64,000 bases of DNA, from NCBI GenBank assembly GCA_963734495.1, contig CAVTHK010000013.1, positions 448,001 through 512,000 of the forward strand, read 5' to 3'. The DNA is from an uncultured Spirochaetota bacterium. Its GTDB lineage: Bacteria > Spirochaetota > Spirochaetia > SZUA-6 > CAVTHK01. The notes beneath the pieces are model-generated. The model saw nothing but the letters and a program-made list of their open reading frames with translations. It searched no databases and was not told the origin of the DNA. The translations under genes and the position numbers were made by a program. Positions 6,614-48,797 of this stretch are shown in pieces. The number at the start of each line of letters is the position of its first letter. Within the stretch, counting starts at the first letter, position 1.

Positions 6614-8115
6614 CGCGCGCCCCCGATCATCCCGGCCGCCCGGCCGCGAAGCTCGTCGAATACCCGCCGCTCCGGCGCGTCCTGGCCATAGGCGGCGCGG
6701 GCCCAGGCCTGCGCAGCGCTCTCGAGCAGCGACTGCTCGGGTGAGCCGGGGACCAGGTCCCGGACCCGACGGACGCATTCGCCCTCGGTCAGGCTCGCAG
6801 GCAGGTCGATCCCGGCCCGCACCGCGATCGTCGCGAGCGTCCCCCGATAGAGGAGGCTCAGGGCGCGCAGCGAGTCGCCGGCTTCCCAGGCGCGGGCCGC
6901 GGCTCCTGGCCAGTCCCGGGGCAGAGGCTCGGGGCCGACGATCCGCGCGTCCGCGCCGCGCAGGGGCGCCGGCCCCGGCGCGGCAGCGCCGCGCCGCCGG
7001 AGCTGCCGCCGGCCGCGGTAGAGGAGCCACGCGAGCAGCACCGTCGCGCCGCCGCCGAGCACCCACGGGGCGGCGTCCGCGACAAAGGTCGCCACGACCG
7101 CAAGGGGCCCCGCATCGGAGCTGCCGCGGGCCGAGCTCGTCTGCGAGGAGCTCCAGCGAGGACGCCAGAAGACCTGCTGCCGCCGCCCGCCGAACTCCTG
7201 GTCGGCGAGGACCTCGGCGATCGCGCGGCTCACCCGCGCGGCGTCGTCGCTCCCGGGAGGCTGCGCGGGAGGCTGCGCCAGAGGCTGCGCCGGCGCCTGC
7301 GCGGCCGCGGCCCACAGCCCGGCCGCCAGCGCGAGCGCGGCTCCCGCCCGCCGCGGCGCGGGGCCACTGCCGCCGCGCGCCAGCCTGCGGGCCATCCGCC
7401 GGAACACGAGCTCGATGTCCCAGCCCTCCAGCGTCACGCGGCGGTTGATGTAGAGCGTGAACCCCGCGCAGACGACGAACGGCCTCATGAGCACGAACGA
7501 CGCGACCCACAGGCAGTAGGCCAGGGGGCCCGTCAGGCGCTGCAGCTCGCGAAAAGCGGCGAGAAACACATCCTCCACTACGCCCTGGCGGGCGACCTCG
7601 AAGACGAAGAACAGCGCGCCGAGCCATGCCGCGATCTCGAAGACGAGCATCGCAGCCGCGAGCCCCGACGCCGCCCATCGACCCGAGCGCGCCACCGCCC
7701 GCAGCCGCCGGGACAGCCCCGCGCCGGCGATGCCTTCGAGCTGACGCACGGGCGCGAGATAGCACCGCCACGGGGTGAGGCGCCTCCAGGAGAGGTCGCC
7801 GGCGAGGTGAGGCAGGAGGGCCGACGCGAGGCCGGCTCTCAGGGAAGAGACAGACGGAGACTCGCCCAGGAACAGCCGGCTCGCCAGGAGCAGCGGCAGC
7901 CGCTCGCACGCGGGCAGCAGCCACCAGAACGCAGCCATCGCGAGACCGGGCCATCGCGCCAGGAGAACGCCGCATGCCACGGCGACCGGGACCGCCGTGA
8001 CGGCGACGGAAAGCAGGAAGGCGGGGAAATGGCGCCGGGCCAGGGCAAGCCCGACGTCGACCGCCTCGGCGGCGGTGCGCTCACGAATGGCGACGCTGAT
8101 CCGCTCGTAGTCCAT
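6610..8115 (-). CDS. DUF4129 domain membrane protein
   Basis: LYINRRVTLEGWDIEL, ALSLLYRG, SLTEGEC, WARAAYG; multiple TMs. Confidence 0.8.
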   Translation of the reverse strand: MDYERISVAIRERTAAEAVDVGLALARRHFPAFLLSVAVTAVPVAVACGVLLARWPGLAMAAFWWLLPACERLPLLLASRLFLGESPSVSSLRAGLASALLPHLAGDLSWRRLTPWRCYLAPVRQLEGIAGAGLSRRLRAVARSGRWAASGLAAAMLVFEIAAWLGALFFVFEVARQGVVEDVFLAAFRELQRLTGPLAYCLWVASFVLMRPFVVCAGFTLYINRRVTLEGWDIELVFRRMARRLARGGSGPAPRRAGAALALAAGLWAAAAQAPAQPLAQPPAQPPGSDDAARVSRAIAEVLADQEFGGRRQQVFWRPRWSSSQTSSARGSSDAGPLAVVATFVADAAPWVLGGGATVLLAWLLYRGRRQLRRRGAAAPGPAPLRGADARIVGPEPLPRDWPGAAARAWEAGDSLRALSLLYRGTLATIAVRAGIDLPASLTEGECVRRVRDLVPGSPEQSLLESAAQAWARAAYGQDAPERRVFDELRGRAAGMIGGAR

Positions 8116-9064
8116 GCGTACGCCCGCTCAAAGCGAGATATGCGCCGACGGCCACGGCCGCGACGACAGCCGCGGCGTACTTGACCGCGGGAGCCAGCGG
8201 CAGCGGCGACCAGAACGCCTCGATGACGGCCGCCAGCACGAGCATCGCGGCCGCGCCCGGCACCAGCGCGACGCATTCGCGGGCGGCCTTTCGCAAGGCG
8301 TCGCGGCGCGCGAGGCCGCCCGGCGACACCAGCGACCAGCCGAGGCGCAGGCCGGCCACCGCGAGGAGCACGGTAGCGCCGAGCTCCAGGGCGCTGTGGC
8401 CGCTCACGAAGGGAAAGAAGGTCCCGGAGAAGCCCCGGTTCACCAGGTGCCCCGTCACGGCCCCGAGAAAGACGCCGTTGTAGAGCAGGATGAGGATGCT
8501 CCCCACGCCAAAGAGGACCCCGCCGGCGAAGACCCGGAACCCGATGCTCGCGTTGTTAGCCACGTAGAAACCGAACATCTCGACGCGCGATCGGCTGTCG
8601 ACGGGACGGAGGAACGTCCTGGAGGCCGGGTCGTACATGGATTCGATCCGTCGCACGGCCTCCGGGTACAGGATCGAGTACACCAGCGCGGGGCTTCGGC
8701 GGACGGCGAGCGCGGTCGCGGCGATCGAGCCGAAGAACAGCGCAAAGGCGATCGCCAGCAGAGCCCAGTGCCGCCGTACGGTCGCGGGGAAGTCATGGGC
8801 GACCCACCGCGCGGCATCATTCCAGCTCACCGAGCGGCCCTTGTACAGCTGCTGATGGGCCCGGAGGGCAAGGCCGTTGAGACGCTCGACGAGCTGCACG
8901 TCGAAGAGCCGGTCGCGGGCGACCGACAGGTCGTCGCAGAGCTCCCCATAGAGCACGGGGAACGCGTCGGCCTCCCGCGTGTCGCGGCGCTCGAGGGCGC
9001 GGACCAGTTCCTCCGTCCGACGCCACCTCCCCTCGCCCGCCGCGCGGAACGTCTCCTGCCTCAC
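8081..9064 (-). CDS. Stage II sporulation protein M (SpoIIM) family membrane protein
   Basis: MFGFYVANNASIGF, FVSGHSALEL, AAVIEAFWS; GTG start overlapping the RDD stop. Confidence 0.85.
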   Translation of the reverse strand: MRQETFRAAGEGRWRRTEELVRALERRDTREADAFPVLYGELCDDLSVARDRLFDVQLVERLNGLALRAHQQLYKGRSVSWNDAARWVAHDFPATVRRHWALLAIAFALFFGSIAATALAVRRSPALVYSILYPEAVRRIESMYDPASRTFLRPVDSRSRVEMFGFYVANNASIGFRVFAGGVLFGVGSILILLYNGVFLGAVTGHLVNRGFSGTFFPFVSGHSALELGATVLLAVAGLRLGWSLVSPGGLARRDALRKAARECVALVPGAAAMLVLAAVIEAFWSPLPLAPAVKYAAAVVAAVAVGAYLALSGRTHGLRADQRRHS

Positions 9065-10509: not shown

Positions 10510-11875
10510 ATGAAAGCGATCAATCCCGCCACGGGCGCGGTCATCGGCAATCACCCGGAGCTCACGGAATCTGCGGCGGCCGAGCGGCTCGAGGCGGCCG
10601 GCGTTGCCGCGAAAGCGTGGGCCGAAGCGTCCGGGGCCGAGCGCAGCCGGCTGATGAAAGCCGCCGCCGCCGTCCTCAAGGCCCGCCGCGATGCGCTCGC
10701 CCTCATCGTCACCGACGAGATGGGCAAGCCGGTCCGCGAAAGCCGCGCCGAGATCGAGAAGTGCATTCTGGTCTGCGAATACTTCGCGGACAGGGCCGCG
10801 GAGTTCCTGGCGGACGAGCCGGTCGAGACCGATGCCCGCAGGAGCCTCGTGGTCTACCGGCCCCTCGGCGTCATCCTCGCGGTCATGCCGTGGAACTACC
10901 CATTCTGGCAGGCATTCCGCGCCGCGGTGCCGGCTCTCATGGCGGGCAACGTCGTGGCGCTCAAGCACGCCTCAAACGTCCCCGGCTGCGCCCTCGCCAT
11001 CGAGAGCGTGTTCCGGGACGCCGGCTTTCCCCCCGGAGCCTTCACCACGCTGCTGGTGGGAAGCGGCGCCGTCCCCGCGCTCATCCGCCACCCCGCGGTC
11101 CGCGCGGTCACCCTGACCGGAAGCACGGCCGCGGGCGAGTCGGTCGCGGCCGAGGCGGGCCGCTGCCTCAAGAAGAGCGTGCTCGAGCTCGGCGGCAGCG
11201 ACGCGTACCTCGTCCTCGAGGACGCCGACCTGGACCTCGCGGCAAAGACCTGCGTGGCCGCGCGCCTCGCCAACTGCGGACAGAGCTGCATCTCGGCCAA
11301 GCGCCTGATCGCCGTCGACCGCGTCTTTGCCGAGATCGAGGAGCGGATACGTCAATGAAATGAAGAAGGTCGCCCCCGGCGACCCCCGCGACGAGGCCGC
11401 GAAGATGGGCCCGATGGCGCGCGGCGATCTGCGCGACGACCTCCACGGCCAGGTGCGCAGGAGCATCGACGCGGGCGCGCGCTGTCTCCTCGGCGGCAAG
11501 GTGCCCGCGGGTCCCGGATCGTTCTATCCGCCGACGCTGCTCACGGGAGTGCGCAAGGGCATGCCCGCGCACGACGAGGAGGTCTTCGGGCCCGTCGCGT
11601 GCCTCATCCGCGCCCGCGACGAGGAGGACGCCATCCGGATCGCGAACGACTCGCCGTTCGGGCTGGGCGCCGCGGTCTTTACGCGCGACGCGGCGCGCGG
11701 CGAGCGCATCGCGGCCGACCGCCTCGAGGCCGGCGCCTGCTTCGTGAACGCGATGGTCCGCTCCGACCCGCGGCTCCCCTTTGGCGGCATCAAGACGAGC
11801 GGCTACGGCCGCGAGCTGGCGCGGCACGGCATCCGCGAGCTCGTGAACGCGAAGACCGTGTACGTCGGCGGCTGA
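10510..11875 (+). CDS. NAD(P)-dependent succinate-semialdehyde dehydrogenase family protein, frameshifted near 11347
   Basis: VMPWNYP, LTGS, LELGGSD, NCGQSCISAKR, EEVFGP, PFGGIKTSGYGRE across ORFs 10510..11358 and 11327..11875. Confidence 0.9.
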
Positions 11876-11966: not shown

Positions 11967-11995
11967 TTGACCCCGGCGCGCGGCGGGAGTAATGT
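11967..11995 (+). promoter_or_regulatory. Candidate sigma70 promoter of the GNAT-thiolase-DUF35 operon
   Basis: TTGACC-17 nt-TAATGT; strong GAGGAGGAG RBS before ATG 12029. Confidence 0.6.
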
Positions 11996-12028
11996 TGCCG
12001 CGCTCACAAATCCCTCGAGGAGGAGCCC

Positions 12029-12721
12029 ATGGCTGTTGACGAGCTCGAGAAGAAACTCAGGCCGCCCGAGCTGCAGATGGCGCCCTACCCCGCCAAGGTC
12101 ATCACGCTGGCCAACGGCGAGAAGATGGTGGTGCGCGAAGCGAAACGCGAGGAGGTCGGCGCCCTCCTCGGCACGATCTACCCGCTGCTCGGCGTCGCCA
12201 AGGACTTCTACGACGTGGTCGCCGCGCGCATGTACGCCGAGGTGCTCGGCTGGTTCCGCTACCGCGTGGCCAACGAGTTCGTGCTCGTCGGCGCGATCGA
12301 CGGCGAGATCGCCGGCATCGTCAACAGCCGCATGTGGGACGCGAAGCGCGGCATCAGCCTTCACACGATGACCATCAGGCGCGGCCTGCGCATCGGGGCG
12401 CAGCTGTTCGCCGCCAAGATGGAGCACCACATCGAGTACCTCAAGCAGGACGAGGTGAACATCGTCGCGGAGAGCCCGATCGGCTTCCGGCGGTGGATGA
12501 TCGAGTACCAGCTCGAGGACAGGAGCGGGAGCTACCCCGGCCTGCAGCACGAGCTCGGCGGCGTGCCCACCTTCACCCTGACCCGTGACCTCTACTTCAA
12601 GGCGAAGGCCGAGAAGGTCACGGGGACGCGCCCCGTCCCGGCCGACGTGCTTGCGACCGCGAACAAGCTGCGCATGCCGGAGACCTACCCGCAGATCCCC
12701 GGCTTCAAGAGGGGCAAGTGA
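12029..12721 (+). CDS. GNAT-like N-acetyltransferase fold protein
   Basis: GEKMVVREA, FVLVGAIDGEIAGIV beta-strands, motif-A-like RRGLRIGAQLF; strong codon bias. Confidence 0.6.
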   Translation: MAVDELEKKLRPPELQMAPYPAKVITLANGEKMVVREAKREEVGALLGTIYPLLGVAKDFYDVVAARMYAEVLGWFRYRVANEFVLVGAIDGEIAGIVNSRMWDAKRGISLHTMTIRRGLRIGAQLFAAKMEHHIEYLKQDEVNIVAESPIGFRRWMIEYQLEDRSGSYPGLQHELGGVPTFTLTRDLYFKAKAEKVTGTRPVPADVLATANKLRMPETYPQIPGFKRGK

Positions 12722-13947
12722 TGGCCGCCCGCGTAGGCGTGGTGGGCATCGGGCACACGGCCTTCGGAAACCTGAGCGACTACGAGCTCACGGACATCCT
12801 CGCCTACGCGTCGACCGACGCGCTGCTCGACGCGGGGATCCTCGAGGAGCGGCGCATCGTCGACCAGGTCATCGTCGGCAACATGGCGTCCGGGCTCTTC
12901 AACCACCAGAGCGGCATCGCGTCGGCCATGGTGAGCAAGCTCGACATGGAGCCGGTGCCCGCCGAGCTCGTGGAGAACGGCCCCGCGAGCGGCGCGAGCG
13001 CGATCAAGATCGGGTACATGGCGATCGCGAGCGGCATGGCCGACGTGGTGCTCGTGACGGCGGGCGAGCTCATGCGCAAGGTCACGGGCTGGCTCGCCAC
13101 GGACTACGTGGCGACGCTGCTGCACCCGCAGGCCGAGTACGACATGGGGCTGACGCTGCCCGCGTTCGGCGGGATGCTCGCGCGCCTGTACATGGAGCGC
13201 TACGGGGCGACGGAGCGCGACCTCGCGCTGGTCGCGGTCAAGGACCACGACAACGGGGCGAAGAACCCGTACGCGCACGTGCGCGGCACCTGCACGATCG
13301 ACGCGATCCACGACAACCCGAACGCGCACGTCGTCAACAACTACGTGGCCGAGCCGCTGCGCATCTACAGCATGTGCCCGGTCTCGGACGGCGCGGCGAG
13401 CCTCGTGCTCGCCAACCTCGACTCGCCGAAGATCAAGCACTTCCGCAAGCCGCCGGTCCTCATCTCCGGGATCGCGTCGGCCACCGACACGCACTGCGTG
13501 CACCACAGGGCCGACCCGCTGGCTCTGAACGCGGTGCGCCTGAGCGCCGAAAAGGCGTACGCGATGGCCGGCCTCAAGCCGTCGGACATCAGCTTCGCCG
13601 AGCTGCACGACGCCTTCGTCATCCTCGAGATCTGCATCAGCGAGGAGGTCGGCTTCTTCGAGAGGGGCAAGGGGTACCTCGCCGTGCGCGAGGGAGCGAC
13701 GGCTCTCAGCGGGCGCCTCCCGATCAACACCTCCGGCGGGCTCAAGGCCAAGGGGCACCCGGTCGGCGCCACGGGCGTGTCGCAGGTCTTCGAGCTGGTC
13801 AAGCAGCTTCGCGGCGAGTGCGAGAAAGAGGGCCGGCAGGTGAAGAACGCGAAGCACGGCCTCGCCGTCAACTTCGGCGGGTTCGGCAACAACGTGGTCA
13901 CGACCATATGCTCAGCGCTGCCGGACGGCGCGAAGGGCAAGAGGTAG
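12721..13947 (+). CDS. SCP2-type thiolase family protein lacking the N-terminal catalytic Cys
   Basis: NGAKNPYAH, CPVSDGAA, AELHDAF, NTSGGLKAKGHPVGATG; VENGPASG in place of the usual ENACASG. Confidence 0.9.
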   Translation: MAARVGVVGIGHTAFGNLSDYELTDILAYASTDALLDAGILEERRIVDQVIVGNMASGLFNHQSGIASAMVSKLDMEPVPAELVENGPASGASAIKIGYMAIASGMADVVLVTAGELMRKVTGWLATDYVATLLHPQAEYDMGLTLPAFGGMLARLYMERYGATERDLALVAVKDHDNGAKNPYAHVRGTCTIDAIHDNPNAHVVNNYVAEPLRIYSMCPVSDGAASLVLANLDSPKIKHFRKPPVLISGIASATDTHCVHHRADPLALNAVRLSAEKAYAMAGLKPSDISFAELHDAFVILEICISEEVGFFERGKGYLAVREGATALSGRLPINTSGGLKAKGHPVGATGVSQVFELVKQLRGECEKEGRQVKNAKHGLAVNFGGFGNNVVTTICSALPDGAKGKR

Positions 13948-13951
13948 CGGC

Positions 13952-14344
13952 ATGATCGATTTCAGCGTCTACGACGTCAAGAAGCCCGAGATCCACGCCG
14001 TCCGCTGCCCCAAGTGCGGAAAGCTCGACTATCCCGCGCCCATGATCTGCAAGGGGTGCGGCACGCGGCGCGACCCTTCGGGGATCAAGGCGCCGGACTG
14101 GGAGAAGGTCGCGCTCGAGGGACCCTGCAAGCTGCTCACGTGGACCAAGGTGTACGCCCTGCCCGAGGGTTACGAGAAGCCGTTCCTCCTGTTCGGCATC
14201 GTCGAGATGGCCAACGGCCTGCGGGCCGCCGGCCGCCTCGAGGTCGACCAGCCGAAGAGCGGGATGGCGCTCGAGGCGACCGTCGAGGTTTCCGACGAGC
14301 GGCCGGGCCGCGAGGTGAACATCTTCGTGTTCAAGCAGGGGTAG
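13952..14344 (+). CDS. DUF35 / ChsH2-like Zn-ribbon + OB-fold protein
   Basis: CPKCG...CKGCG zinc ribbon, LLTWTKV, PFLLFGIVEMANG; directly follows the thiolase. Confidence 0.85.
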   Translation: MIDFSVYDVKKPEIHAVRCPKCGKLDYPAPMICKGCGTRRDPSGIKAPDWEKVALEGPCKLLTWTKVYALPEGYEKPFLLFGIVEMANGLRAAGRLEVDQPKSGMALEATVEVSDERPGREVNIFVFKQG

Positions 14345-35573: not shown

Positions 35574-38435
35574 GCCGGGCTTCTACCCTTTCTGGTTCTG
35601 GAACGCCGGCCTGGATGAAGGCGAGATCCGCCGCCAGATCGGCGAGATGGCCGCGCAGGGCATCAAGGGCTTCTTTATCCACAGCCGGCAGGGCCTCGAG
35701 GTGCCGTATCTCTCGGAGGCCTTCTTCCGCCTCGTCGCCGTTGCGGTCGACGAGGCCCGCAAGCGCGGCCTGGTCGCCAATCTCTACGACGAGTACCCCT
35801 ACCCGAGCGGCGTGGCGGGAGGCGAGGTCGTCCTCGGCGCTCCCGGGTTCCAGGCCACGGCTCTCGTCCACGACCGGCACGAGACCGCGGGCGGCCGCGT
35901 GCGCCTGGCGCTGCCGCGCGGCCAGGTCCTCTGCTGCATCGCCTGCCCGGTCCGCGACGGGCAGACCGACTGGGGCGCGGCGATCGACTGCCGCGACTCC
36001 GTCGGCATGGTGCTCGCGGAGCAGTCCTACGTGGAGACGGGACTCACGGCGTACAACCGCAAGCGCTTCTTCGCGAGCTCACCGACGCCGACGCTGGACG
36101 TCACGCTTCCCGACGGGAATTGGCTGATCCACGCGTGCTGCCAGGTGCTCGTCACCCATCACAAGTACTGGGGAGCGTACGTCGACGCGCTTGAACGAAC
36201 GGGCCGATCGCGCGCTTCATCGAGCTCACGCACGAGCGTTACGCGCGCCGATTCGCCGGGGAGATGGGCGAGACCATCCGCGCGATCTTCGTGGACGAGA
36301 CCGCGCCCTCCTGGACGCCCGACCTCCCTCGCCTCTTCCGCGAGCGGTACGGATACGACCTGCTTCCGCTGCTGCCCGCGCTGGAGGCGGAGGATCATCC
36401 GCGGCACGTGCAGGTCACCGCGGACTTCGAGCGGCTGCGCCACGACCTCTTCCGCCGGTCCTTCGACGAGCCGCTGGCTGCCTGGTGCCGGGAGCACGGC
36501 ATCGCCTGGCTCGGCGAGAAGCCGAGCTACCGCCTCTCCGAGCTCCGCTTCATGGACGTGCCGGGCTGCGACGTCGGCCACACCAAGGCCGGCGCCCCGA
36601 CCGACATGCTGCGCTCGCGCCTGCGCTGGCAACGCCGCGCGACGGCCTCGGCCGCCTACTTCTACGGCAAGCCGCGCTCGCTGTGCGAGTGCTTCCACAG
36701 CCTCGGGTGGGGGGCGACGATGCAGGACGCGCGCCTCATCGTGGACGAGCTGCTGCTGCAGGGCATCGACGTCCTGGTGCCCCACGCGTTCTTCTACTCG
36801 ACCCACGGCCTGCGGAAGCACGACGCGCCGCCGAGCTTCTTCTTCCAGATGCCGTGGTGGAAGCTGTGGCACCTGCTCTCGCGGCGCTTCGACGCGATCG
36901 CGGGCGCGTTCGCGGGGACGTGGATCGACGCGGCCGTGCTCGTCGTGGACCCCGGGCCCGGCGTGCCGACGGCCCGCGGCAGGGAGGTCTACGAGCGGCT
37001 GATGGCAGCGCTCGGGCGAGGCGCATGTCGACTTCGCCGTCGTGGACACCGACATCCTGCAGGCAGTGCCGGATCGAAGGCGGAAGGATCAAGGTGAAGG
37101 ACCTCGCGGCGGCCGCGGTCCTCGCTGCCGCCCATGCGGTACGTGGAGAAGGAGCTGGAGTCGTGCCTCCGCGGCCTGGAGCAGGCCGGGGGGCGGGTCG
37201 ATGCGGATCGGCGAGGACCCCGACTGGGACGCGCTGCTCGCTCGAAGCACAGCGGTGGCGCGCCCGCTCGGCCTGCGGACCGAGGAGCGGCGACGCTTCG
37301 CGAGTGCGGGTGGTGAGCCGAACGGACGGCCGCGGCGGCTCTGCTTTCTGCTGAACTCGTCCGGCGACCCGGTGACGGTCGCGCTGCGGACGACGGCGAG
37401 CTGGCCGAGCTGCCTCTCGAGGCGGACGCCCCGCCCTGCTGGAGCGCTCGGGCGGCGGCTTTGCCCGCAGGCTCGGCCCCTTCGAGGCGGCTCTGCTCGA
37501 AAGCGGCGGAGGCGGCGCGCGTCGCGATGCTGCCGCCCCGCCCGCCGGGCTCGCGCTCCGCCTCGAGGGTGCCGCGACGGTGCGCCTCCTCGGGCGGAAC
37601 CTGCTGCGCATGGCGCGCTGGGAGCTGACGCTCTCGGGCCGGCCGGGCGGCGGGCAGGCCGCGGCCGCGGTCGTCTCCGCCGCCCCGATCGCGAACCAGA
37701 TCGCCGAAGGCCGGCTCGCCTTCGCGCCCGACGTTCGCAGCTTCTTCGGCCACGAGCCGGAGCTGCTGCTCCCCGAGCTGACGCGCCGAGTACGCCTTCA
37801 CTTCGAGAATTCGTACGCGGGGGCCGTCGAGCTTGTCATGGAGCCGGACTCGATCCGCGGGGAGGCGCGCGTGCGGGTCAACGGCGGCCGGCCACGCGTT
37901 CCGGACGACTTCAGGCCGACGGACGCGCACGTGCCCGGCTGCATCGGGGTGGACGTGACTGCTGACCTGGTGCCTGGCGCGAACCGCGTCACCGTCGAGG
38001 TCGTCACCAACCGGCTGGACGGCGGGCTCCTCAACCCGCTGTACCTGGCTGGGGATTTCGGCGTGAGCCTCGAGCCGCTCGCGCTCCGCGCGCCCACCGC
38101 CGGCGGCCTCTTCGAGGACTACGATGCAAATTTCGCACCTTTCTATTCGGGGACCGTCGAATACGGGATGGAGGCGACCCTGCGCGGCGTTCCTCGCGGG
38201 GGGAACGTGCTCCTGGAGCTGGCGCTGCCGCGGCACTTCGAGGAGGCCTGCGAGGTCTCGCTGAACGGACACCCCTTCCGGCCGGCCCCCTGGTCACCGT
38301 ACCGGATCGTGGTTCCGGCTGCCGAGATCAGCAACGGCGCCAATCGACGTCCGCGTGCGCGTGCTCACCACGCTGGCCCGCGCCTTCGACGGCACCCGCT
38401 TCGACGCGGCCGCTCACCGCTACGTTCCCGTCTGA
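35560..38435 (+). CDS. GH106-like (alpha-L-rhamnosidase-type) glycoside hydrolase, multiple frameshifts
   Basis: PFWFWN, GFFIHSRQGL, LYDEYPYPSG, IFVDE, CECFHSLGW, PHAFFYS, RKHDAPPS, PLYLAGDF, PFYSGTVEY spread over several frames. Confidence 0.75.
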
Positions 38436-38469
38436 AGGCGCCGTTGCCCGTCAGGCCGCGAACAGCAGG

Positions 38470-39350
38470 CTACCGCCTGCGCTTGCGCGCCTCCTCGTGC
38501 AGCCACGCGTTCTCGGCGCCCGCGACGTCGCCGAAGCGCGTCAGCTTGGCGCGCGCCTTCTTCTTCATCAATTCCTCGTAGCGCCCGTCCTCGACCAGGG
38601 CCACCACGCGGGCGATGCTCGACTCTCCGTCCACGAACCGCCAGGGGAAACATCCGATCAGGGCGCGCTGGTTGAGCAGGAGGTCCATGTCGCCGCCGGC
38701 GCACTCGACGTGGATGATCCCGTGGTCGAACATCTCGATGTGCATGAGCTGGTACTTGTCCGCGCGTGAAGATCTCGTCCAGCCCCTTGCCGTACTTCGA
38801 GCGCATGTGCGCGTCGCACTCCCTGGCCTGCACGGGCATCCACTCGCGGATCTTGGTGTTCATCGGGTGATCGCCGCTGCCGCAGTCGACGGCGAGCCAG
38901 CGCAGCTTCTTGCGCTTGCACCACTCGGCGAACTCGCGGTCGGGCCCCGGGTGCTTGATCATGTAGCGGATCTCGTCGGCCGTCGGCTGGTCCCAGCCGT
39001 AGTGATGGAAGCCCGTGTGGATGATCAGGATGTCGCCGTCTTTGACCTCGACGCGCTCCTCCACCATCTTCGGAGGTGTAGACGTCGTAGTCGCCCACGA
39101 CGTCGGACAGGTCGACGATCGCCCCCTCGTGGACGAGGAAGTCCATGTCGAGGCTCGCGATGTCCTTGCCCGGAGTGTAGAAGTGAATCTCGCCGTCGAG
39201 GTGCGTGCCCACGTGGTTCGAGTGGGTCACGACCTGGCCGTTGGCGCCGTTGGGCGCGAGGCGCTTGAAGTACTGCACCTGCAGCGGAATGTAGGTCGGC
39301 CAGGGCGGGGTTCCGATGCCGAGCGGGATCGAGAGATCGATGGCTTTCAC
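38470..39350 (-). CDS. Cyclase family (kynurenine formamidase-like) metallo-amidohydrolase, frameshifts near 39072 and 38765
   Basis: DLSIPL, HxGTHxD motif HVGTHLDG, GDILIIHTG, IIHVECAGG. Confidence 0.85.
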
Positions 39351-39404: not shown

Positions 39405-40827
39405 CTACCTTCCGTACTTTTCCACAAACGCCGCGAAGGCGTCCCCGAAGCACTTGACCGGCGGCTTGACGAGGCCGGCGCCGACCATCCCTATGCCCGG
39501 CTCCTTGTGCGCGATCCCGGTGTTGATGGCCGGGAGGATCCCCGTCTCGATGATCTTGAGAAGGTCTACGCCCGTCGGCGTTCCGCGGAAATCGAGGGCC
39601 GGGATCTGGTACGACTCGTTCTCCGCGGCCGTGATCTCGTACATGCGCAGCGTGGTGTTGACGGCGTCTGCCGGCGAGCCGCCGACGAACTTGACGATGG
39701 CGGGCGCCGCGGCCATCGCGAAGCCGCCGATCCCGGCGGTCTCCGTGATGACGGAGTCGCCGATGTCGGGCGCCGCGTCCTTTGCGCTGAATCCCGGCAG
39801 GTAGAGCCCCTCGACCATGGACGCGGGCCCGGTGAACCAGCGGTCGCCGAGCCCCGAAACGCGGATGCCGAAGTCGGTCCCGTTGCGCGCCATCGTCACC
39901 ACGATGGAGCTCCCCTCGATTCCCGCGGCGGGGTCCACGGTGGACTTGGCCGACGGCATCGAGAGGTTGAGGAAGAAGTGGTCGTTCCCGTTGATGAACC
40001 GGATCACGTCGCGCACGGTCTCCCGGCTCTCGTCGAGCATCACGAGGAACGGGGCGAGCTCGCGGAGGACGAGCGACGTGCCTGCCCGGTTCCTGTTGTG
40101 CCCCTCGTCGCCCATCTGCAGCACCTGGGCGATGACGTTCTTCATGTCCAGCGGCCCGTGCGCCTCGAGCGCCCGCGCGATCACCGGAGCGAGAACGCGC
40201 TCGATCCACCGCAGCCGTTCGATCACCTCGGGCGAATTGGCGCCGTAGCGCAGCACCTTGCCGAGCCCTTCGTTGAAGGTGCAGAAGGCGCGGTTGCCGA
40301 ACGCCGTGTTCTCCAGGATCCAGACAGGCATGCTCGCGGTCACCACCCCGGCCATGGGCCCCACCGCGGAATGGTGATGGCACGGCTCGAAGGTGATGTC
40401 GCCGGAGGCGGCCAGAGCTTCGGCTTCAGCGGCGTCGCGGGCCAGCCCTTCGTAGACGAGACCTCCGATGACGGCGCCGCGCATCGGACCGCACATCCGC
40501 TTCCAGGTCACGGGCGGGCCGGCATGGAGTACTGTCGTCTTGGTCATGCCCGGGACGGTGTTCAGAGCCGTGCCGACGCCCACCAGCGTCGGGACGGGCC
40601 GCCTGGATGCGGCGGACGGCTTCGGCGTTCGCGCGCCCGATGTCGAGCGCCGGGTTGGCCTCCAGGCGATCGAGCCGCGCGGCGAGCGACGGGTCCGCGG
40701 GCGGGGTCCAGGCGACCTGAACGGCGGGGACCCCCTGCTCGCGCAGGGACTGAGCGAAACCCTCGAGGCCGAGGTTGACTACCTTCAGCTCAGTTTTGAA
40801 CAGCTCGTCGATCCGGTTCGCGCTCAT
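39405..40827 (-). CDS. allG: DUF1116 / YlbE-like oxamate carbamoyltransferase subunit, frameshift near 40592
   Basis: LHAGPP, PCHHHSAVGPMAG, NEGLGKVLRYGA, MGDEGHNRN, MARNGTDFG, DIGDSVITE, INTGIAHK. Confidence 0.88.
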
Positions 40828-42559
40828 CGGTTGCGCCCCCTGGCTGCCCCGCGGCTTCGCGCGGGCTTCGCCGCGCGCCGGCCGCGTGCCTGACGCCTTG
40901 CGGCTGGAACTCGCGGCTTTCCGCCCCCGCCGCGCGGGCGCTGCCGACGCCTTGCGGCTGGGACTCGCGCGCTTTCCGCCCTCGCCGCGCCAGGCGCTCC
41001 ATGATCCGCAGCGCCAGCCTCGCCGCCTGGAAATTTGACGGCATCACGACCACGCCGGCCGACTCGAGCCTGCTCTTCTGCGCGTCCAGCCCCTGGAAAT
41101 CGCCTGCGGTCCCTGTGACCGAGGCGATCACCGAAAGGTGGCCGCGGCGCCGAGCGAAGCGCGCCTTGGCTTCGGCGATCGGCCCGGCGATGGCGCCGGC
41201 CGGGTCTGCGTGCGAGCCGTAGCCCAGCACGAGGTCGAGCAGGACTGACCGCGACCTCCGGGTCCTCGGCCTCCTGAACCAAGCCGTTCCACCCGGATCG
41301 AGGGATCGATCATCGGGTGAGGCCTTCCCACTGTAAATTTGTCATCCCCGAGGTCGACGATCGTGTTCGCCTTCGACGCGCGCGGGTCAGCGAGGACGAA
41401 AGCGGGGTCCGTCTGATTGTTGGAGTAGACGCCGCCCGGCAGACCGCTGAGGACGATCATCGCCTCATCAGCCAGGGTTCCACCGGTGAACAGGCCCCGC
41501 AGCCACCGCTGACGTCTTCCCATCCTTCGCGTCTCGGCCGCCGCGATCGACTCGATCTCGGGCTCAGTCAGGGTGAAGGGCCCCCGCCGCCCGGCGCCGC
41601 GCCCGCGCTCGAGAGCCACTGCCATGACCGCGGTCTCCTCGAGGCTCGAGGCGAAGTGAACCGAATCCGGGCTCTCCGCGGCCGCAGGCGCCGGCATCCC
41701 GACGAAAGTGCACGACCGCAGGTTTGCCCGCGTCGACCAGCGCCGCGATCACCCTGGCAGCGACCGCAGGCGCGGGCGGTTTGGATACGACCGCGATCAC
41801 GCGCGTGCCCGCGTCGCGCGCGAGCGCCTCGATGCCGGCGAGCATGGTCATGCCGCCCACTCGTTCGTCCTTGAGGTCGCGGCCGCCGGTCCCGATCGCC
41901 TGCGAGACGCCCGCGCCGAGCTTCTCGATGCAGCAGGTGACCTCCTGCAGGCCGCTGCCGGCCGCCGCGACGACGCCGATCGCGCCGCGACGCACCACGT
42001 TCGCAAAACAGAGCGGCCTGCCGTTGATGATGGCCGTACCGCAGTCAGGCCCCATCATCAGCAGCCCGCGCTCACGGGCAAGCTTCTTGAGGCTGATCTC
42101 GTCCTCGAGGCCGACGTTGTCCGAGAAAAGCATGACGTGCAGACCGCGCAGCAGCGCCCGCCTCGCCTCCCGCGCGGCGTAGGCGCCGGGCAGCGAGATG
42201 ACCGCCACGTTGGCCCCGGGGAGCTCCTTGAGCGCGGCGTCGAGGCTCGCCGGCCTGTGCTCGCCGCTCTGAGCGCCCGCTCCGCCTCCCCTGTTCTGGA
42301 CGAGGCGCTGCGCTGCCTCGAGCGCCTCGTCCAGCGCTTGTGCCGTCGCGCCTTCGAGGGCGATGACCAGGTCGTTCGGGGTGGCCGCCGCGATCTCTGG
42401 CGCACGGTATCCCATGTCGCCCAGAAGCTGCTTGTTGGTGTCGGTGGCCATGGCGACGACCGCATCCGAGACGCCGTCGAGCTTTCTGGCCTCCTGACTG
42501 ATCAGCATCAGAAGCACGGAGTCGTAGTAGGAGTCCTTCCGCACGAGGACCTTTTTCAC
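40824..42559 (-). CDS. fdrA: Acyl-CoA synthetase FdrA / AllF, frameshifts near 41706, 41282 and 41247; exact stop uncertain (40824 or 40790)
   Basis: YYDSVLLM, MLFSDNV, MGPDCGT, GTGGRDL, SKPP, GLFTGGTL, DLGDDKFTVGRPHPMIDP, LGYGSHADPA. Confidence 0.9.
40892..40990. repeat. Direct repeat of about 45 bp, period 54
   Basis: GACGCCTTGCGGCTGGRACTCGCG(C)GCTTTCCGCCCYCGCCGCGC at 40892 and 40946. Confidence 0.85.
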
Positions 42560-43625: not shown

Positions 43626-44438
43626 TCACGGGATCCCGCCGGCGCGCCACACGAACCCGAGGAGCGCGTCGGTGCCCGAAGTCTCGCCGTGGGCGACGGC
43701 CTCCCGCACCGCCGCGCGCACGTCCTCGGCCGACCGCGACGCATCGAGCCGGGCGAGGAACCGCAGGAGGTACGCCGGGTAGCTGCCGCGCAGCGCGAGC
43801 GTAAGGAGCGTCCTGCCGCCTGGGGTGGTCCGCGAGAGGCCCAGGCCGACCGACTCGCGGTCGATCGGCCGGCCGCGGGCGCCCCCGACACACTCCTCCG
43901 CCAGCAGCGCGCCCGCCAGGAAGTCGTCGCCCGACGGCGTGAACCCGGGCCCCAGGCCCACCAGGCCGCCTTCGAAGCCCGAGGCGGCCGCGGCGCTTGC
44001 CCCGCGAAGCAGTGCACGCGCCTTGGCGCCGAATGGGTTCGTGTCCGTCGGCACGATCACCCCCAGGAAGCCGCCGGGCACGCCGCAGGAGCGCAGGGCC
44101 GCGGCAACTGACCCGACACGGGCGCGGCCGAGCGCCGGGCGGGATACGGGCCGCCCCTCCCACACCACGGCGCCGTCGAGGCTGACGCGGCCCCTGCCGC
44201 TCACCCGCAGCCCGGCGCCCGACACGGCGTCGCCCGGAGCGATCCCCCCCGGAAAGCGGGGCACGAGCACCGCCATTCCGGTCATGTCGGCCTCGCGCAG
44301 CAGGAGCGACACCAGCAGGCCCGACGGCTCGTCGAGCACGTTGACGGCGGCGGCATGAACCGACAGGACGCGGCCGCTCACCGCTTCGGGCACGAACGCC
44401 CCGCGCGCCGTGGCCTGCACCGCTTCGGGCTCATCCAC
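43626..44438 (-). CDS. allH: DUF2877 / YlbF-like oxamate carbamoyltransferase subunit
   Basis: VLSVHAAAVN, LVGLGPGFTPSGDDFLAG, GETSGTD; GGGAG RBS. Confidence 0.85.
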   Translation of the reverse strand: MDEPEAVQATARGAFVPEAVSGRVLSVHAAAVNVLDEPSGLLVSLLLREADMTGMAVLVPRFPGGIAPGDAVSGAGLRVSGRGRVSLDGAVVWEGRPVSRPALGRARVGSVAAALRSCGVPGGFLGVIVPTDTNPFGAKARALLRGASAAAASGFEGGLVGLGPGFTPSGDDFLAGALLAEECVGGARGRPIDRESVGLGLSRTTPGGRTLLTLALRGSYPAYLLRFLARLDASRSAEDVRAAVREAVAHGETSGTDALLGFVWRAGGIP

Positions 44439-44462
44439 CGCGCAGCTCCCTTCATTTTTTGT

Positions 44463-44488
44463 TTGACAACCAACGGGGCGCGTGTCAA
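44463..44488. promoter_or_regulatory. Inverted repeat TTGACA-N14-TGTCAA between divergent allH and the permease
   Basis: Perfect 6+6 dyad in an AT-enriched intergenic region. Confidence 0.45.
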
Positions 44489-44544
44489 CATCGCGGCAAG
44501 CGCATGTCCCCGTGCGCCGCACCCTACAAGATAAGGAGCACAGG

Positions 44545-45925
44545 ATGGCCAAACAAGAAGGAAAGGTCCTCGGGTACCTGCCCGCAGACACGCCGCCCTT
44601 CGGGGCGATGGTGAGCCTGGGGTTCCAGCAGGTACTGACGATGTTCCCGGCGACGGTCCTGGTCGCGATACTGACAAAATTCGACGTCGGTGTGACGCTG
44701 CTCGCGTCCGGGGTGGGCACGATCGTCGCGCTCCTGGTTTCGGGCCGCAGGATCCCGATGTACTACGGGTCGAGCTTCAGCTACATCACCGTGGTCATCA
44801 CGGTGATGAACCTCTATGCCCCGCAGGCGTTCGCGGATAAGAACATCCACTACGTGGCCGAGGGCGTCCGCATCGTCCAGGTCGGCATCGTCGGCACGGC
44901 GGTCGTCGAGATCCTGGTCGGGTCTGCTCATCATGCGCGTCGGCAAGGCGGCGCTCGACAAAGTCCTTCCGCCTGTCATCACCGGCAGCGTCGCGATGGT
45001 CATCGGAGTCGCGCTCGCGGGCGCGGCCCTCGGCTCGGCCTCGGCCAACTGGTTCATCGCGATCGTCACGCTGCTGTTCACGATCGGCTTCTCCGTCTAC
45101 CTGCAGGGCAAGGGCCTGCTCGGGATGCTCCCGATCCTGCTCGGCGCCGTGGTCGGCTACGTAGTCGCGGCTCTGATGGGGATCGTGAGCTTCGGCCCCT
45201 TCGTCGACTCGCAGTGGCTGCGCGTTCCGAGGATCACCTTCCCGGCTTTTGAAGACCCGCGGGCCTGGTCCATCGTCGTGAGCGTCGCGCTGATCGCCAT
45301 AGCGACGATACCCGAGAGCACCGCCCACCTGTACCAGATGAGCCTCTACATCGACGCCCTCGCGAAAGAGCTCGGCAAACCGGCCATCGAGATCAAGAAG
45401 CTCATCGGCCTGAACCTGGTCGCGGACGGCGCCGACGACGTCGTCGTCGGCATGCTCGGCGGCTGCGCGGGCACGAACTACGGCGAGAACAACAGCCTCA
45501 TGGCCATCACCCGCAACTACTCCGTCCCGGTCTTGATGTGCGCCGGAGTGATCGCGATCCTCCTCGGCTTCGTCGGGAAGCTCGCAGGGTTGGTGGAAAC
45601 CATCCCCGCGGCCGTCACCGGCGGCCTCTCGATCTACCTCTTCGGCGTCATCGGCATGCAGGGCGTCGCCCTCATCCAGTCCGAGCGCGTCAACCTCTTT
45701 GAGCCGCGCCAGCTCGCCGTCGGAGCGACGATCCTGATCCTCGGGATCGGCGGCGCCATGGGGTTGCCCAACGGGCTTTTCCCCTTCCCCATCCCGATCC
45801 TGTTCCCGAGCGGGATCCCCGCCATCGTGTTCTCCGCGATCTGCGGCATCGTCCTGAACCTGATCTTCCTCGTGATGCCGCCCGCGATGTTCGGCGTCAA
45901 GGAGCGCGAGAACATCAACTATTAG
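44545..45925 (+). CDS. NCS2 xanthine/uracil permease, frameshift near 44920
   Basis: GFQQVLTMF, YYGSSFSY, LPPVITG, IPESTAH, GTNYGENN, LFGVIG; AAGGAG RBS. Confidence 0.9.
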
Positions 45926-48153: not shown

Positions 48154-48677
48154 TCGCCGTGGTAGTCGACGAGTGTCGTCACGTCGTAGCCGGCGAGCAC
48201 CCGGTCGTAGTGAAGGAACGGCAGGCCGATGACGCCGAAAATCGCGCCCACGCGCGCGCCTCCGGCGGCCAGCAGCCCCGCGGCAGCCTTCAGCGTACCT
48301 CCTGTCGCGATCAGGTCGTCGACCAGCAGCACGACGGCGCCCGGCCGCACGTCGGAGCGGTGGACTTGGATGGCGTCCTCCCCGTACTCGAGTGCGAATT
48401 TTGCAGTCAGCGTCTCGCCGGGAAGCTTCCCCTTCTTTCTGAGGAGGATCAGGGGAAGGCGAAGCCTGTCGGCGAGCGGTGCGGCAAAGACGAACCCCCG
48501 CGCTTCGATGGCCGCCACGGCGTCGAACCCCCTGGACCGGTAGAGGCTCTCCATCCGGTCGATGCACCATCGAAACGCCTCGGGCGTCGTCAGGATCCCC
48601 GTGACGTCGTAGAACAGAATGCCCGGCTTCGGGAAGTCGGGCACCTTGCGGACTGCGCGATCCAGGTCGTACTCCAT
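48150..48677 (-). CDS. apt: Adenine phosphoribosyltransferase
   Basis: VPDFPKPGILFYD, IEARGF, RKKGKLPG, LEYG, VDDLIATGGT. Confidence 0.96.
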   Translation of the reverse strand: MEYDLDRAVRKVPDFPKPGILFYDVTGILTTPEAFRWCIDRMESLYRSRGFDAVAAIEARGFVFAAPLADRLRLPLILLRKKGKLPGETLTAKFALEYGEDAIQVHRSDVRPGAVVLLVDDLIATGGTLKAAAGLLAAGGARVGAIFGVIGLPFLHYDRVLAGYDVTTLVDYHGE

Positions 48678-48797
48678 GTCTCCCCCCGGCAGGCCCGGGG
48701 CATTCTACCCGCTCGCCGGCGGAACGGGAATCCCCGGCGCCGGATGCTTGTACCTTCCGCGCCGCCCCTGCTATCATCACGCGGTCGGAGGCTTGCC

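Follow-up and report, generated by a model that had tools for sequence, protein, structure and literature searches.

Three adjacent genes in a 64,000-nucleotide stretch of DNA from an uncultured Spirochaetota bacterium (the whole of this stretch is referred to as the window) encode a divergent protein with a predicted GNAT fold (A), a thiolase-fold protein in which a proline replaces the nucleophilic cysteine (B) and a small DUF35-type protein (C). Together, A, B and C probably carry out the final part of a pathway, not yet described and mostly anaerobic, that acts on a uracil-like ring. Within such a uracil-to-barbiturate pathway, the reading that we tentatively favor, while giving it slightly less than an even chance, is that the trio activates the malonyl remnant (malonamate or malonate) in a CoA-dependent manner and decarboxylates it.

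Organization of the Gene Trio

The three genes are tightly coupled: the stop codon of A overlaps the GTG start codon of B in the sequence GTGA, and 4 nt separate the stop codon of B from the start of C (Table 1). Since their third-position GC is 0.95–0.98 in a genome of ~71% GC, all three are true coding frames. The ribosome binding site reported in the initial annotation is present 5–11 nt ahead of the ATG of A, which itself lies 153 nt downstream of the ALDH stop codon (11875). By contrast, the promoter claimed for the operon could not be confirmed, as the consensus scan called no sigma-70 promoter upstream of A, the hexamer pair reaching 8 of 12 matches at a tool threshold of 9. A, B and C are indeed free of frameshifts, as had been stated, but this intactness says little because many neighboring genes are frame-split (ALDH, cyclase, AllF/G, permease, XDH), and it was rejected as a sign of selection. 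None of the split sites falls within a long homopolymer; the splits may reflect assembly indels or decay.

Table 1. Positions of the trio and of associated genes in the window
Feature	Position	Strand	Description
Upstream region of A	11967..12028	+	Weak -35/-10-like pair TTGACC-17 nt-TAATGT; RBS GGAGGAG
Gene A	12029..12721	+	230 aa, divergent protein of predicted GNAT fold, unnamed family
Gene B	12718..13947	+	409 aa, thiolase fold, Pro89 at the position of the nucleophile Cys
Gene C	13952..14344	+	130 aa, DUF35-type zinc ribbon and OB fold
Cyclase-family (PF04199) amidohydrolase	38473..39350	-	Three frames; 83–93% identity to Gracilinema cyclase in three pieces
AllF (FdrA-like CoA_binding and Ligase_CoA) and AllG	39441..42559	-	Five frame pieces
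AllH-like gene	43626..44720	-	PF11392, 1.6e-18
NCS2 nucleobase permease	44572..45925	+	Two frames; matches uracil permease models better than xanthine permease models

Conservation of the Trio

In 80 trio loci, covered for ~6 kb on each side and with record titles naming about a dozen phyla, A and B are always adjacent and keep their order, while C follows B in 73, with six of the seven misses located at contig ends; this set, like the 80 CoA-transferase loci described below (160 loci together), was chosen by the feature counted in it. In locus L069 C was not found by ORF or BLAST searches although the contig continues. The linkage of the three genes on which the initial annotation relied is thus conserved. 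Of 301 genomes sampled from the phylum, 18 contain A, and 17 of these carry a B of at least 531 bits beside it. No such B occurs in the A-negative genomes of the sample, where the best match (399 bits, genome G035) was rejected as an intermediate, being an ordinary thiolase with its normal cysteine (VESACASGG, HDCF). The recurrence of the triplet together with the proline is more than chance. The full operon is also carried by a cultured host, Sphaerochaeta sp. PS.

A search for longer homologues of A gave no convincing case of a natural A–B fusion: three candidates of 415–536 aa are frame-garbled read-throughs on high-GC contigs, and a 630-aa A–B ORF in L040 arises from a frame slip near the end of A. 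Gene order and translational coupling suggest that the three proteins may form a physical complex; a complex prediction for B and C with A as the partner (score 0.01, mark 0.32) counts neither way.

A Thiolase Without Its Cysteine

B matches the Pfam families Thiolase_N (1.4e-25) and Thiolase_C_1 (4.5e-43) and by sequence is an archaeal/SCP-x-type thiolase. Its best NCBIfam model, PRK06064, gives 391 bits, below the cut-off of 420, and the acetyl-CoA acetyltransferase equivalog 322 bits, below the cut-off of 600; NCBI records label it “acetyl-CoA acetyltransferase.” The nearest solved relatives are the archaeal thiolases 7yvy (7e-76) and 6esq (2e-63), with Ltp2 (6ok1, 8e-29) and PhlC (~1e-22 to 1e-24) more distant.

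In the phmmer alignment the EAACASG motif of 7yvy falls on ENGPASG of B (residues 86–92), so that the nucleophile cysteine corresponds to Pro89. With a proline at this position, B cannot form an acyl-enzyme. The absence of the cysteine and the retention of the histidines in HDAF (296–300) and GHP (346–348), both read from the window at the outset, hold across the family: NGPASG is found in 81 of 81 B sequences, no orthologue having the cysteine, and HDAF and GHP in 77 and 76, respectively, the remainder being cut at contig ends. The change from cysteine to proline is a fixed family trait. Among 34 sequences (mean column identity 70%) H297, H347, N337, C220 and about 90 other positions are invariant. 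The thiolase fold, like the GNAT fold, is a binder of CoA thioesters.

The GNAT-Fold and DUF35 Partners

A matches no Pfam or NCBIfam family except for a sub-cut-off FlbD match of 16 bits; in Pfam neither an Acetyltransf model nor malonyl-CoA decarboxylase (PF05292) was matched at E ≤ 1, and a profile built from 49 A sequences had no match among PDB sequences at E ≤ 10. Homologues number 3119, none of them assigned to a named family; the best 120 are 72–92% identical and all annotated as “hypothetical,” and loci with record titles of different phyla share 60–76% identity in A. The AlphaFold2 model (pLDDT 93.3) matched 298 PDB chains at E ≤ 1e-3, all of the matches listed being GNATs; in the VIA fold comparison Z reached 13.9 (rmsd 2.8, 160 aligned residues), with 203 chains at Z ≥ 8, and the ESM Atlas neighbors are GNAT clusters. 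The predicted structure therefore gives A a GNAT fold, in agreement with what had been suspected of the third gene. Malonyl-CoA decarboxylase (MCD) and CurA-type GNATs are absent among the fold matches listed. Many of the top structural matches are CoA complexes, and the modeled fold suggests that A may bind CoA as well. Residues V64, R101, S110, H112, G123, K130 and G152 are invariant in 49 sequences. The loop RRGLRIGA, located between strand 107–115 and helix 122–137, contains the invariant G123 and the near-invariant R118 and G119, but has a longer spacing than the classical motif A loop R/Q-x-x-G-x-G/A.

C scores below threshold with both halves of the DUF35 architecture, zf-ChsH2 (PF12172, 21.0 bits, cut-off 23.2) and OB_ChsH2_C (PF01796, 19.3 bits, cut-off 27.1), and reaches 30.8 bits with the NCBIfam model of BbsA. 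Its four-cysteine, rubredoxin-like zinc ribbon (C19, C22, C33, C36) is invariant in 30 sequences. Orthologues, named “Zn-ribbon domain-containing OB-fold protein” at NCBI, are free-standing proteins of ~111–132 aa as judged from aligned gene coordinates.

Genomic Context

The trio is part of a set of genes that also includes a Mo-hydroxylase of the xanthine dehydrogenase (XDH) family, an amidohydrolase of the cyclase family, AllFGH, carbamate kinase and a permease of the uracil type. In the source genome this set is scattered over ~67 kb of one contig. In other genomes the orthologue of the window's cyclase gene lies immediately before A. Around the 80 trio loci the FAD, FeS and Mo subunits of XDH were found in 46, 43 and 37 cases, respectively, AllFG in 43, cyclase in 36, AllH in 26 and carbamate kinase in seven. 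Furthermore, AllG is present in 18 of the 18 A-positive genomes of the phylum sample, so that the proposed co-occurrence with the cyclase and allFGH genes is borne out. The full-length orthologue of the permease, located beside the trio in L003, scores higher as uracil permease (268 bits) or RutG (247) than as the xanthine permease PbuX (142), and these in-operon scores would favor a pyrimidine over a purine ring. The Mo subunit scores nearly equally with XdhA and 4-hydroxybenzoyl-CoA reductase models, all below cut-off. AllFGH was shown experimentally to cleave oxalurate phosphorolytically to oxamate and carbamoyl phosphate, oxalurate being its one proven substrate (PMC11326118).

An Alternative Module in the Same Operon Slot

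Two genomes that are 99% complete (G110 and G288) contain XDH, permease, AllF, AllG and cyclase but lack the trio, and carry a family III CoA-transferase followed by an amidase directly after the cyclase. In 80 metagenome loci with this CoA-transferase, cyclase was counted in 34, AS-amidase in 31, the XDH Mo subunit in 29 and AllFG in 24. The two modules were never found together: none of these 80 loci contains trio genes, and none of the 80 trio loci contains the CoA-transferase. The CoA-transferase and amidase thus fill the operon slot of the trio in other lineages, which is a new observation; it establishes the same position in the pathway and is not proof of the same reaction. The best solved relative of the amidase is malonamidase E2 (180 bits, the next 153), and those of the CoA-transferase are YfdE, formyl-CoA transferase and succinate-hydroxymethylglutarate CoA-transferase, all of them dicarboxylate enzymes. 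PF05292 was not matched in G110, G288, G007, G060 or G134, but neither was it in the controls.

In eight loci without AS-amidase a CN-hydrolase adjoins the CoA-transferase. Along its entire length this enzyme shares 54% identity with the CN-hydrolase next to the trio in 13–14 Verrucomicrobiota-type loci, and the latter has formamidase and aliphatic amidase among its best NCBIfam models. The two modules therefore have the CN-hydrolase partner in common in addition to the cluster and the slot after the cyclase, whereas the putative proteins of the CoA-transferase module have no kinship in sequence or fold with any member of the trio. Neither Spirochaetota-type trio operons nor the source genome yielded an orthologue of this CN-hydrolase (best 43–91 bits), and within the bounds of the 80 trio loci no AS-amidase was found apart from one weak match. 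If the trio only replaces the CoA-transferase, an amide-hydrolyzing step is missing in the Spirochaetota-type operons.

Proposed Function and Competing Readings

The gene content suggests a barbiturate route in which the XDH-family Mo-hydroxylase would oxidize uracil or thymine to (methyl)barbiturate and the cyclase-family amidohydrolase would open the ring to ureidomalonate. AllFGH may then convert ureidomalonate and phosphate to carbamoyl phosphate and malonamate, so that carbamate kinase could form ATP from carbamoyl phosphate, leaving the C3 malonyl remnant to the trio. CoA-dependent handling of this fragment is proposed because the context is one of N-heterocycle catabolism and because the slot, where it does not hold the trio, is taken by a CoA-transferase of the dicarboxylate type and a malonamidase-like amidase. 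A would bind CoA or acyl-CoA and activate the malonyl group as a thioester, B would decarboxylate the malonyl thioester to acetyl-CoA in an enolate pocket formed by H297 of HDAF and H347 of GHP, and C would keep the subunits assembled, which is the role of DUF35 in the archaeal complex of thiolase and HMG-CoA synthase. Each of these elements, from the substrate and the use of CoA to decarboxylation and complex formation, is inferred. Condensing-enzyme folds without cysteine that decarboxylate malonyl thioesters exist in the KSQ/CLF ketosynthase-like malonyl decarboxylases, and GNAT folds that do so in malonyl-CoA decarboxylase and the GNAT domain of CurA. However, the KSQ/CLF precedent belongs to the ketosynthases, and we know of no characterized Cys-less decarboxylase inside the thiolase family proper. 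A more daring version, which we consider unlikely, makes the trio a channeling machine that turns malonamate and CoA into acetyl-CoA, CO2 and NH3, a decarboxylation-driven conversion of an amide to a thioester of a type not yet described. The GNAT would run backwards, transferring the acyl group uphill from N to S, while B would pull this transfer by removing CO2 from the bound malonyl-CoA, with DUF35 allowing the proteins to share one CoA site; in the archaeal complex, too, an unfavorable condensation is coupled to a favorable one.

A decarboxylase that operates without CoA would yield acetamide from malonamate or acetylurea from ureidomalonate, with an amidase or AllFGH finishing the route and the GNAT binding the substrate instead of CoA. 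B keeps the enolate-stabilizing His pair without an acyl-accepting Cys, and the CN-hydrolase adjoining the trio could, judging from its models, hydrolyze acetamide. Nevertheless, this reading is unlikely, given that a CoA-transferase forms the core of the module replacing the trio, that GNAT and thiolase folds both bind CoA and that, as known from malonate decarboxylases, malonate-type acids and amides are poorly decarboxylated in free form, without thioester activation. We also deem it improbable that B is a silent scaffold and A the only enzyme, a reverse GNAT moving malonyl or acetyl from the nitrogen of an amide or N-acylurea to CoA, with B and C supplying architecture or a CoA-binding surface. 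Such a role would agree with the loss of the nucleophile in every B, with the extreme conservation of A including its polar invariant residues (R101, S110, H112, K130) and with Spirochaetota-type operons that have no separate amidase in the loci examined, which suits an enzyme taking the amide itself. However, the persistence of HDAF, GHP, N337 and the other invariant positions across phyla is unexpected for a scaffold, and moving an acyl group from the nitrogen of a plain amide to sulfur is uphill unless another step drives it.

It is very unlikely that the genes belong to a purine/allantoin branch, with the Mo enzyme as xanthine dehydrogenase, AllFGH as a true oxamate carbamoyltransferase and the trio acting on oxamate or oxalate. 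The proven substrate of AllFGH, the oxalate enzyme YfdE as best solved relative of the CoA-transferase and the nearly equal, sub-cut-off XdhA score of the Mo subunit are consistent with it, but neither uricase, allantoinase, allantoicase nor ureidoglycolate dehydrogenase was found among the conserved or annotated neighbors in the 160 loci, the permease is uracil/RutG-like and the amidase malonamidase-like, and oxalyl-CoA decarboxylation requires thiamine diphosphate rather than an enolate pocket. The initial annotation had proposed an aldolase-type complex resembling Ltp2, which would cleave a 3-hydroxyacyl-CoA while the GNAT channels acetyl-CoA. Indeed, Ltp2-ChsH2(DUF35) is the one characterized Cys-less thiolase-fold enzyme known to have a DUF35 partner, and 6ok1 does match B; yet B is far closer to the archaeal acetoacetyl-CoA thiolases, C stands alone where the DUF35 of Ltp2-ChsH2 is a MaoC hydratase tail, the genomic setting is one of ureide/N-heterocycle catabolism, and no hydratase, dehydrogenase or other partner forming a 3-hydroxyacyl-CoA occurs among the conserved or annotated neighbors in the 160 loci. 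The aldolase proposal is therefore unsupported and highly improbable, whereas the wider claim of undescribed CoA-dependent C–C chemistry may survive, since decarboxylation is a C–C cleavage.

Relation to Known Systems

The archaeal complex of acetoacetyl-CoA thiolase, HMG-CoA synthase and DUF35 (6esq, 6et9; thiolase 7yvy), which contains the nearest solved relatives of B, has the same three-gene layout of a thiolase fold, a small zinc-ribbon/OB protein and a third CoA-binding enzyme (predicted in the case of A), and its thiolase shares HDAF and GHP with B. Unlike this complex, the trio has proline for the nucleophile cysteine in every B orthologue and the GNAT-fold A as third gene in 80 of 80 loci; no HMG-CoA synthase was detected among the conserved or annotated neighbor genes scanned against Pfam. 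Moreover, the archaeal complex serves mevalonate synthesis, whereas the trio stands in a context of ring catabolism. The steroid side-chain retro-aldolase Ltp2-ChsH2 (6ok1) resembles B and C in combining a Cys-less thiolase fold with a DUF35 domain, but there DUF35 is fused to a MaoC hydratase, while no MaoC gene was found among the conserved or annotated neighbors of the trio loci, and the substrate class is another. Ltp2 relies on a catalytic tyrosine pair. The Friedel-Crafts acetyltransferase PhlACB (5m3k, 9skm) likewise comprises a thiolase-like subunit, DUF35 and a third subunit, and acts on a 1,3,5-trioxo-type ring resembling barbiturate; however, its third subunit is KAS III-like rather than a GNAT, and the cysteine used by PhlC is absent from B.

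The oxidative pyrimidine pathway of Rhodococcus, Corynebacterium and Mycobacterium consists of uracil dehydrogenase, barbiturase and ureidomalonase. Barbiturate and ureidomalonate (oxalurate with one further CH2) are intermediates of both this pathway and the proposed route, but the former employs a barbiturase of the cyanuric acid hydrolase family and ends hydrolytically in urea and malonate, where the latter would use a cyclase-family enzyme, AllFGH with carbamate kinase, and the trio. In the literature searched, which comprised papers accessible without subscription, no paper joins DUF35 and thiolase with xanthine dehydrogenase or with a GNAT, and none describes an anaerobic barbiturate route with these genes, in keeping with the earlier impression that no characterized system has this composition. 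A 2025 preprint on reductive uric acid degradation describes the use of other enzymes.

Implications

The trio is among the most conserved unannotated enzyme units encountered in these searches, and the label “acetyl-CoA acetyltransferase” given to B misleads metabolic reconstructions of anaerobes. If the favored reading of CoA-dependent activation and decarboxylation is true, the genes described here would be candidates for every step of an energy-conserving, oxygen-free route from uracil or thymine via barbiturate. The GNAT would then represent a third kind of partner in the thiolase/DUF35 architecture, and B would show what role the thiolase fold can take once its cysteine is lost. In the channeling version, AllFGH and carbamate kinase together with the trio would provide anaerobes with two substrate-level ATP per pyrimidine ring.

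The trio and its sequence features

The three genes of the trio encode a GNAT-fold protein (A), a thiolase-fold protein (B) and a DUF35-type protein (C). They are tightly coupled, such that the stop of A overlaps the GTG of B and C starts 4 nt past the stop of B. Third-position GC is 0.95-0.98 for each, in a window of ~71% G+C, and GGAGGAG precedes the ATG of A. The promoter that the initial annotation gave the three genes has less behind it than was said there: the promoter-like pair agrees with the consensus at 8 of 12 positions and was not called by the promoter scan. B matches Thiolase_N and Thiolase_C_1 (Pfam), with the archaeal-type PRK06064 as its top NCBIfam model (391 bits, below the cut-off of 420). 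Its ENGPASG aligns to EAACASG of the solved thiolase 7yvy (7e-76), so that Pro89 takes the position of the acyl-carrying Cys, and HDAF and GHP are retained, as had been noticed from the sequence. The NCBI label of B orthologues, "acetyl-CoA acetyltransferase," cannot be right, because the nucleophile is absent. C has a four-Cys ribbon, and its DUF35 matches lie below threshold. The second-best solved relative of B is PDB 4yzo (1e-68), a "putative acyl-CoA acyltransferase," which reads DNTSGSG at the nucleophile Cys position; thus, a second Cys-less lineage of B's thiolase type already has a structure and, by name, no function.

Apart from a sub-cut-off FlbD match, neither Pfam nor NCBIfam assigns A to a family, and the profile of A gave no matches at E≤10 against PDB sequences, so that the family stands alone by sequence. 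Its fold was modeled with AlphaFold2 from an alignment of 49 homologues (pLDDT 93.3, pTM 0.90). With Foldseek, the model matched 298 PDB chains (E≤1e-3); among the matches listed, all are GNAT acyltransferases, at 7-16% identity. A Foldseek-independent structure search returned 203 chains at Z≥8, the best being 1yre_A (Z 13.9, rmsd 2.8, 160 aligned), and the neighbors of A in the ESM Atlas are GNAT clusters. The proposed GNAT-like third partner is therefore well founded. V64, R101, S110, H112, G123, K130 and G152 are invariant in the 49-homologue alignment, with S110 and H112 placed by the model on the strand ahead of the RRGLRIGA loop.

Conservation and spread

Homologues of A number 3119 at E≤1e-3. 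The top 120 share 72-92% identity, are 207-257 aa long (mostly 228-231 aa), have no Pfam domain and bear "hypothetical protein" as their sole name. At 50% clustering only 176 representatives match A, many of them fragments; the family's members are numerous but little diverged. When one genome per species was scanned, 198 relatives turned up, and 80 loci were retained. As labeled in the records, these belong to Spirochaetota, Verrucomicrobiota/Kiritimatiellia/Lentisphaerae, Caldisericota, Thermoanaerobaculaceae, Phycisphaerales, Riflebacteria, Fibrobacteraceae, Sumerlaeota, Eisenbacteria, Chloroflexota and Gemmatimonadota. The order A-B is found in all 80 loci and C follows B in 73, six of the seven exceptions being contig ends. 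In the seventh, L069 on a Candidatus Eisenbacteria chromosome, no C could be detected in the stretch from B to the XDH (xanthine dehydrogenase-family Mo-hydroxylase) FAD gene; its sister loci have C there, and the L069 copy may be short or frame-broken.

No orthologue keeps the Cys: all 81 B sequences read NGPASG. Over 34 full-length sequences the mean column identity of B is 70%, with H297, H347, N337 and C220 invariant, and the four Cys of C are invariant in its alignment. Of 301 sampled genomes from the window's phylum, 18 carry A; in 17 of these a B orthologue of at least 531 bits adjoins it, and none of the 283 others has such an orthologue. The B-like gene that scores next (399 bits, G035) reads VESACASGG and HDCF and was set aside as a normal thiolase. 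Two outcomes that, by the initial annotation, would have refuted it, Cys-bearing orthologues and an unconserved GNAT linkage, were thus not borne out. The observation made in the initial annotation is confirmed, and its interpretation is partly supported.

Gene neighborhood and frame splits

The operon that contains the trio in both Gracilinema caldarium and Sphaerochaeta sp. PS has the order AllF-AllG fusion, cyclase-family amidohydrolase (cyclase), A, B, C, GntR regulator, AllH, (carbamate kinase), and the XDH FAD, FeS and Mo subunits. A, B and C of Sphaerochaeta sp. PS have the accessions WP_313725676/675/674. The neighbors at the 80 trio loci are the XDH FAD subunit (46), AllFG (43), FeS (43), Mo (37), cyclase (36), AllH (26), GntR (24) and carbamate kinase (7); in 11 of the loci an NCS2 permease lies downstream of C. 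In the phylum sample, every one of the 18 genomes with A also has AllG, and six more have AllG without A, so the suspected link to the cyclase and allFGH genes is borne out. The in-operon permease scores highest as uracil permease (268 bits), ahead of RutG (247) and xanthine permease (142), and the window's own truncated permease gives the same ranking with a narrower margin. In the window's genome the pathway set is scattered, yet on one contig; a carbamate-kinase-like gene (350 bits, cut-off 358) lies on a different one.

Coordinates of the trio, pathway genes and neighboring features (G000:C13, the window's contig in coordinates outside the window numbering; L numbers, loci from other genomes)
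Feature	Sequence	Position	Strand	Remark
A	window	12029-12721	+	ORF, 230 aa
B	window	12718-13947	+	ORF, 409 aa, GTG start
C	window	13952-14344	+	ORF, 130 aa
Trio	window	12.0-14.3 kb
XDH subunits	G000:C13	427049-430774		left of window; both large subunits frame-split
Cyclase, AllG, AllF	window	38.5-42.6 kb
AllH	window	43.6-44.7 kb
Permease	window	44.6-45.9 kb
GabD-like aldehyde dehydrogenase	window	10510-11875	+	directly upstream of A; frame-split
Split region	window	36264-38581
Cyclase pieces	window	38473-39350		3 pieces
AllF/AllG pieces	window	39441-42559		5 pieces
Permease pieces	window	44572-45925		2 pieces
Glycine cleavage set	window	48159-53031	+	2-7 kb beyond AllH/permease
C not detected	L069	about 7870-8560
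Toxin-deaminase domain protein	L022	10307-10987		226 aa, ~2 kb downstream of trio
GltD/PreT-like flavoprotein	L061	1528-2856	-	also in L005 and L054
Mo-cofactor genes and carbamate kinase	L155	7206-9244		directly after CoA-transferase
Mo-cofactor genes and carbamate kinase	L153	7178-8131		directly after CoA-transferase

The trio was described as frameshift-free and its frames are indeed intact, but this proves little because frame splits are common in the surrounding genes, including a GH106 fragment. The junctions lie outside long homopolymers. Either assembly indel errors or recent decay may account for them, and the former are favored because the pieces are highly identical to their orthologues (83-93% for the cyclase).

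In E. coli, AllFGH has been shown by experiment to be the oxamic transcarbamylase, which converts oxalurate and phosphate to oxamate and carbamoyl phosphate (PMC11326118). The simplest route that one hydroxylase, one ring-opening amidohydrolase and a ureide phosphorylase would form is a uracil/thymine-to-barbiturate pathway, in which uracil/thymine would be converted via barbiturate and ureidomalonate to carbamoyl phosphate and malonamate.

Several other genes lie near these loci. The toxin-deaminase domain protein (BURPS668_1122 family, 4e-31), conserved in 10 further Verrucomicrobiota-type loci, might deaminate a nucleobase (cytosine?) and so supply the pathway. The GltD/PreT-like flavoprotein, with dihydropyrimidine-dehydrogenase domain II 4Fe-4S and Pyr_redox_2 domains, may serve the Mo enzyme as its electron partner. 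The complete glycine cleavage set (T, H, P1, P2) is probably housekeeping.

Replacement of the trio in sister operons

Of the six genomes with AllG but no A, two are G110 and G288 (99% complete, of the class of the window's genome). Their cyclase orthologues (91% and 86% identity) lie beside AllF/AllG, XDH and a permease. Neither genome has the trio, the top B-profile matches scoring 226 and 188 bits and lying on other contigs. The exact A-B-C position is taken by a family III CoA-transferase and, after it, an amidase-signature (AS) amidase. The top solved relatives of this amidase are eight malonamidase E2 sequences (180 bits), followed by a "probable amidase" (153 bits) and GatA (117), and those of the CoA-transferase are YfdE (354 bits), formyl-CoA transferase (343) and succinate-hydroxymethylglutarate CoA-transferase (339). 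Orthologues of the CoA-transferase at ≥74% identity occur only in G110 and G288 within the phylum sample, other matches reaching at most 46%.

When metagenomes were scanned with this CoA-transferase, 558 relatives came up, and 80 loci were retained. With each locus set picked by its gene and then counted over ~6 kb either side, the CoA-transferase loci contain cyclase (34), AS-amidase (31), XDH Mo (29), AllFG (24), FeS (14), FAD (13), permease (12) and carbamate kinase (2), but none of A, B or C, and the trio loci contain no CoA-transferase, one weak AS-amidase (86 bits) and 13-14 CN-hydrolases. AllH, XdhC and MoeA genes also appear at CoA-transferase loci, XdhC and MoeA being the Mo-cofactor genes of L155 and L153. 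In eight loci without AS-amidase a CN-hydrolase adjoins the CoA-transferase. Compared over the full length, it shares 54% identity with the CN-hydrolase that adjoins the trio in Verrucomicrobiota-type loci; the CoA-transferase-linked copies are no closer among themselves (52%). Because they share none of these 160 loci, yet share upstream enzymes and an amidase partner, the trio and the dicarboxylate-type CoA-transferase are alternative occupants of one pathway position. This shared slot does not prove a shared reaction.

Proposed function and relation to known systems

The most economical reading of the post-AllFGH step is that malonamate or malonate would be handled as a CoA thioester, for which amidase plus CoA-transferase would be one solution and the trio another. 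We tentatively propose that the trio acts on this malonyl remnant at the CoA-thioester level, with B decarboxylating the malonyl thioester. B cannot be acylated because its nucleophile Cys is missing, and both His are kept and would serve the decarboxylation. The thiolase His pair polarises the thioester carbonyl and stabilises the enolate, and decarboxylating a malonyl thioester requires just this. A, with a fold built for holding acyl-CoA, would bind CoA or an acyl-CoA, and C may be an adaptor, by analogy with the DUF35 protein of the archaeal mevalonate complex. The pathway CN-hydrolase is absent from Spirochaetota-type operons and from the window's genome, and no AS-amidase lies within Spirochaetota-type trio loci, so that either the trio itself also takes the amide or an unlinked amidase serves.

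A CoA-independent decarboxylase would equally act on a malonyl remnant and is unlikely, given the GNAT fold of A and the CoA-transferase in the same slot. That B is a scaffold only would suit the lost nucleophile, and is doubtful beside the retained His pair. An oxamate/oxalate branch would follow the E. coli AllFGH product and appears quite improbable, the slot amidase being closest to malonamidase E2. Of the initial interpretation, the unit of Cys-less thiolase, DUF35 and GNAT protein stands, but the aldolase-type reading fares poorly: Ltp2-ChsH2 has the same architecture, but its DUF35 is fused and the trio has no hydratase, and an Ltp2-like aldolase is highly improbable.

A thiolase fold, a DUF35 protein and a third enzyme are also common to the trio, the archaeal mevalonate complex and PhlACB. 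The trio differs from the former in having neither Cys nor HMGCS, and from the latter in having neither a KAS III-like partner nor Cys. Because it fails defining features of each of the three systems, it belongs to none of them and is a new variant of the thiolase/DUF35 architecture. A literature search, confined to papers available without subscription, found none joining these components. The trio is a real, widespread and uncharacterised enzyme unit with a testable candidate function.
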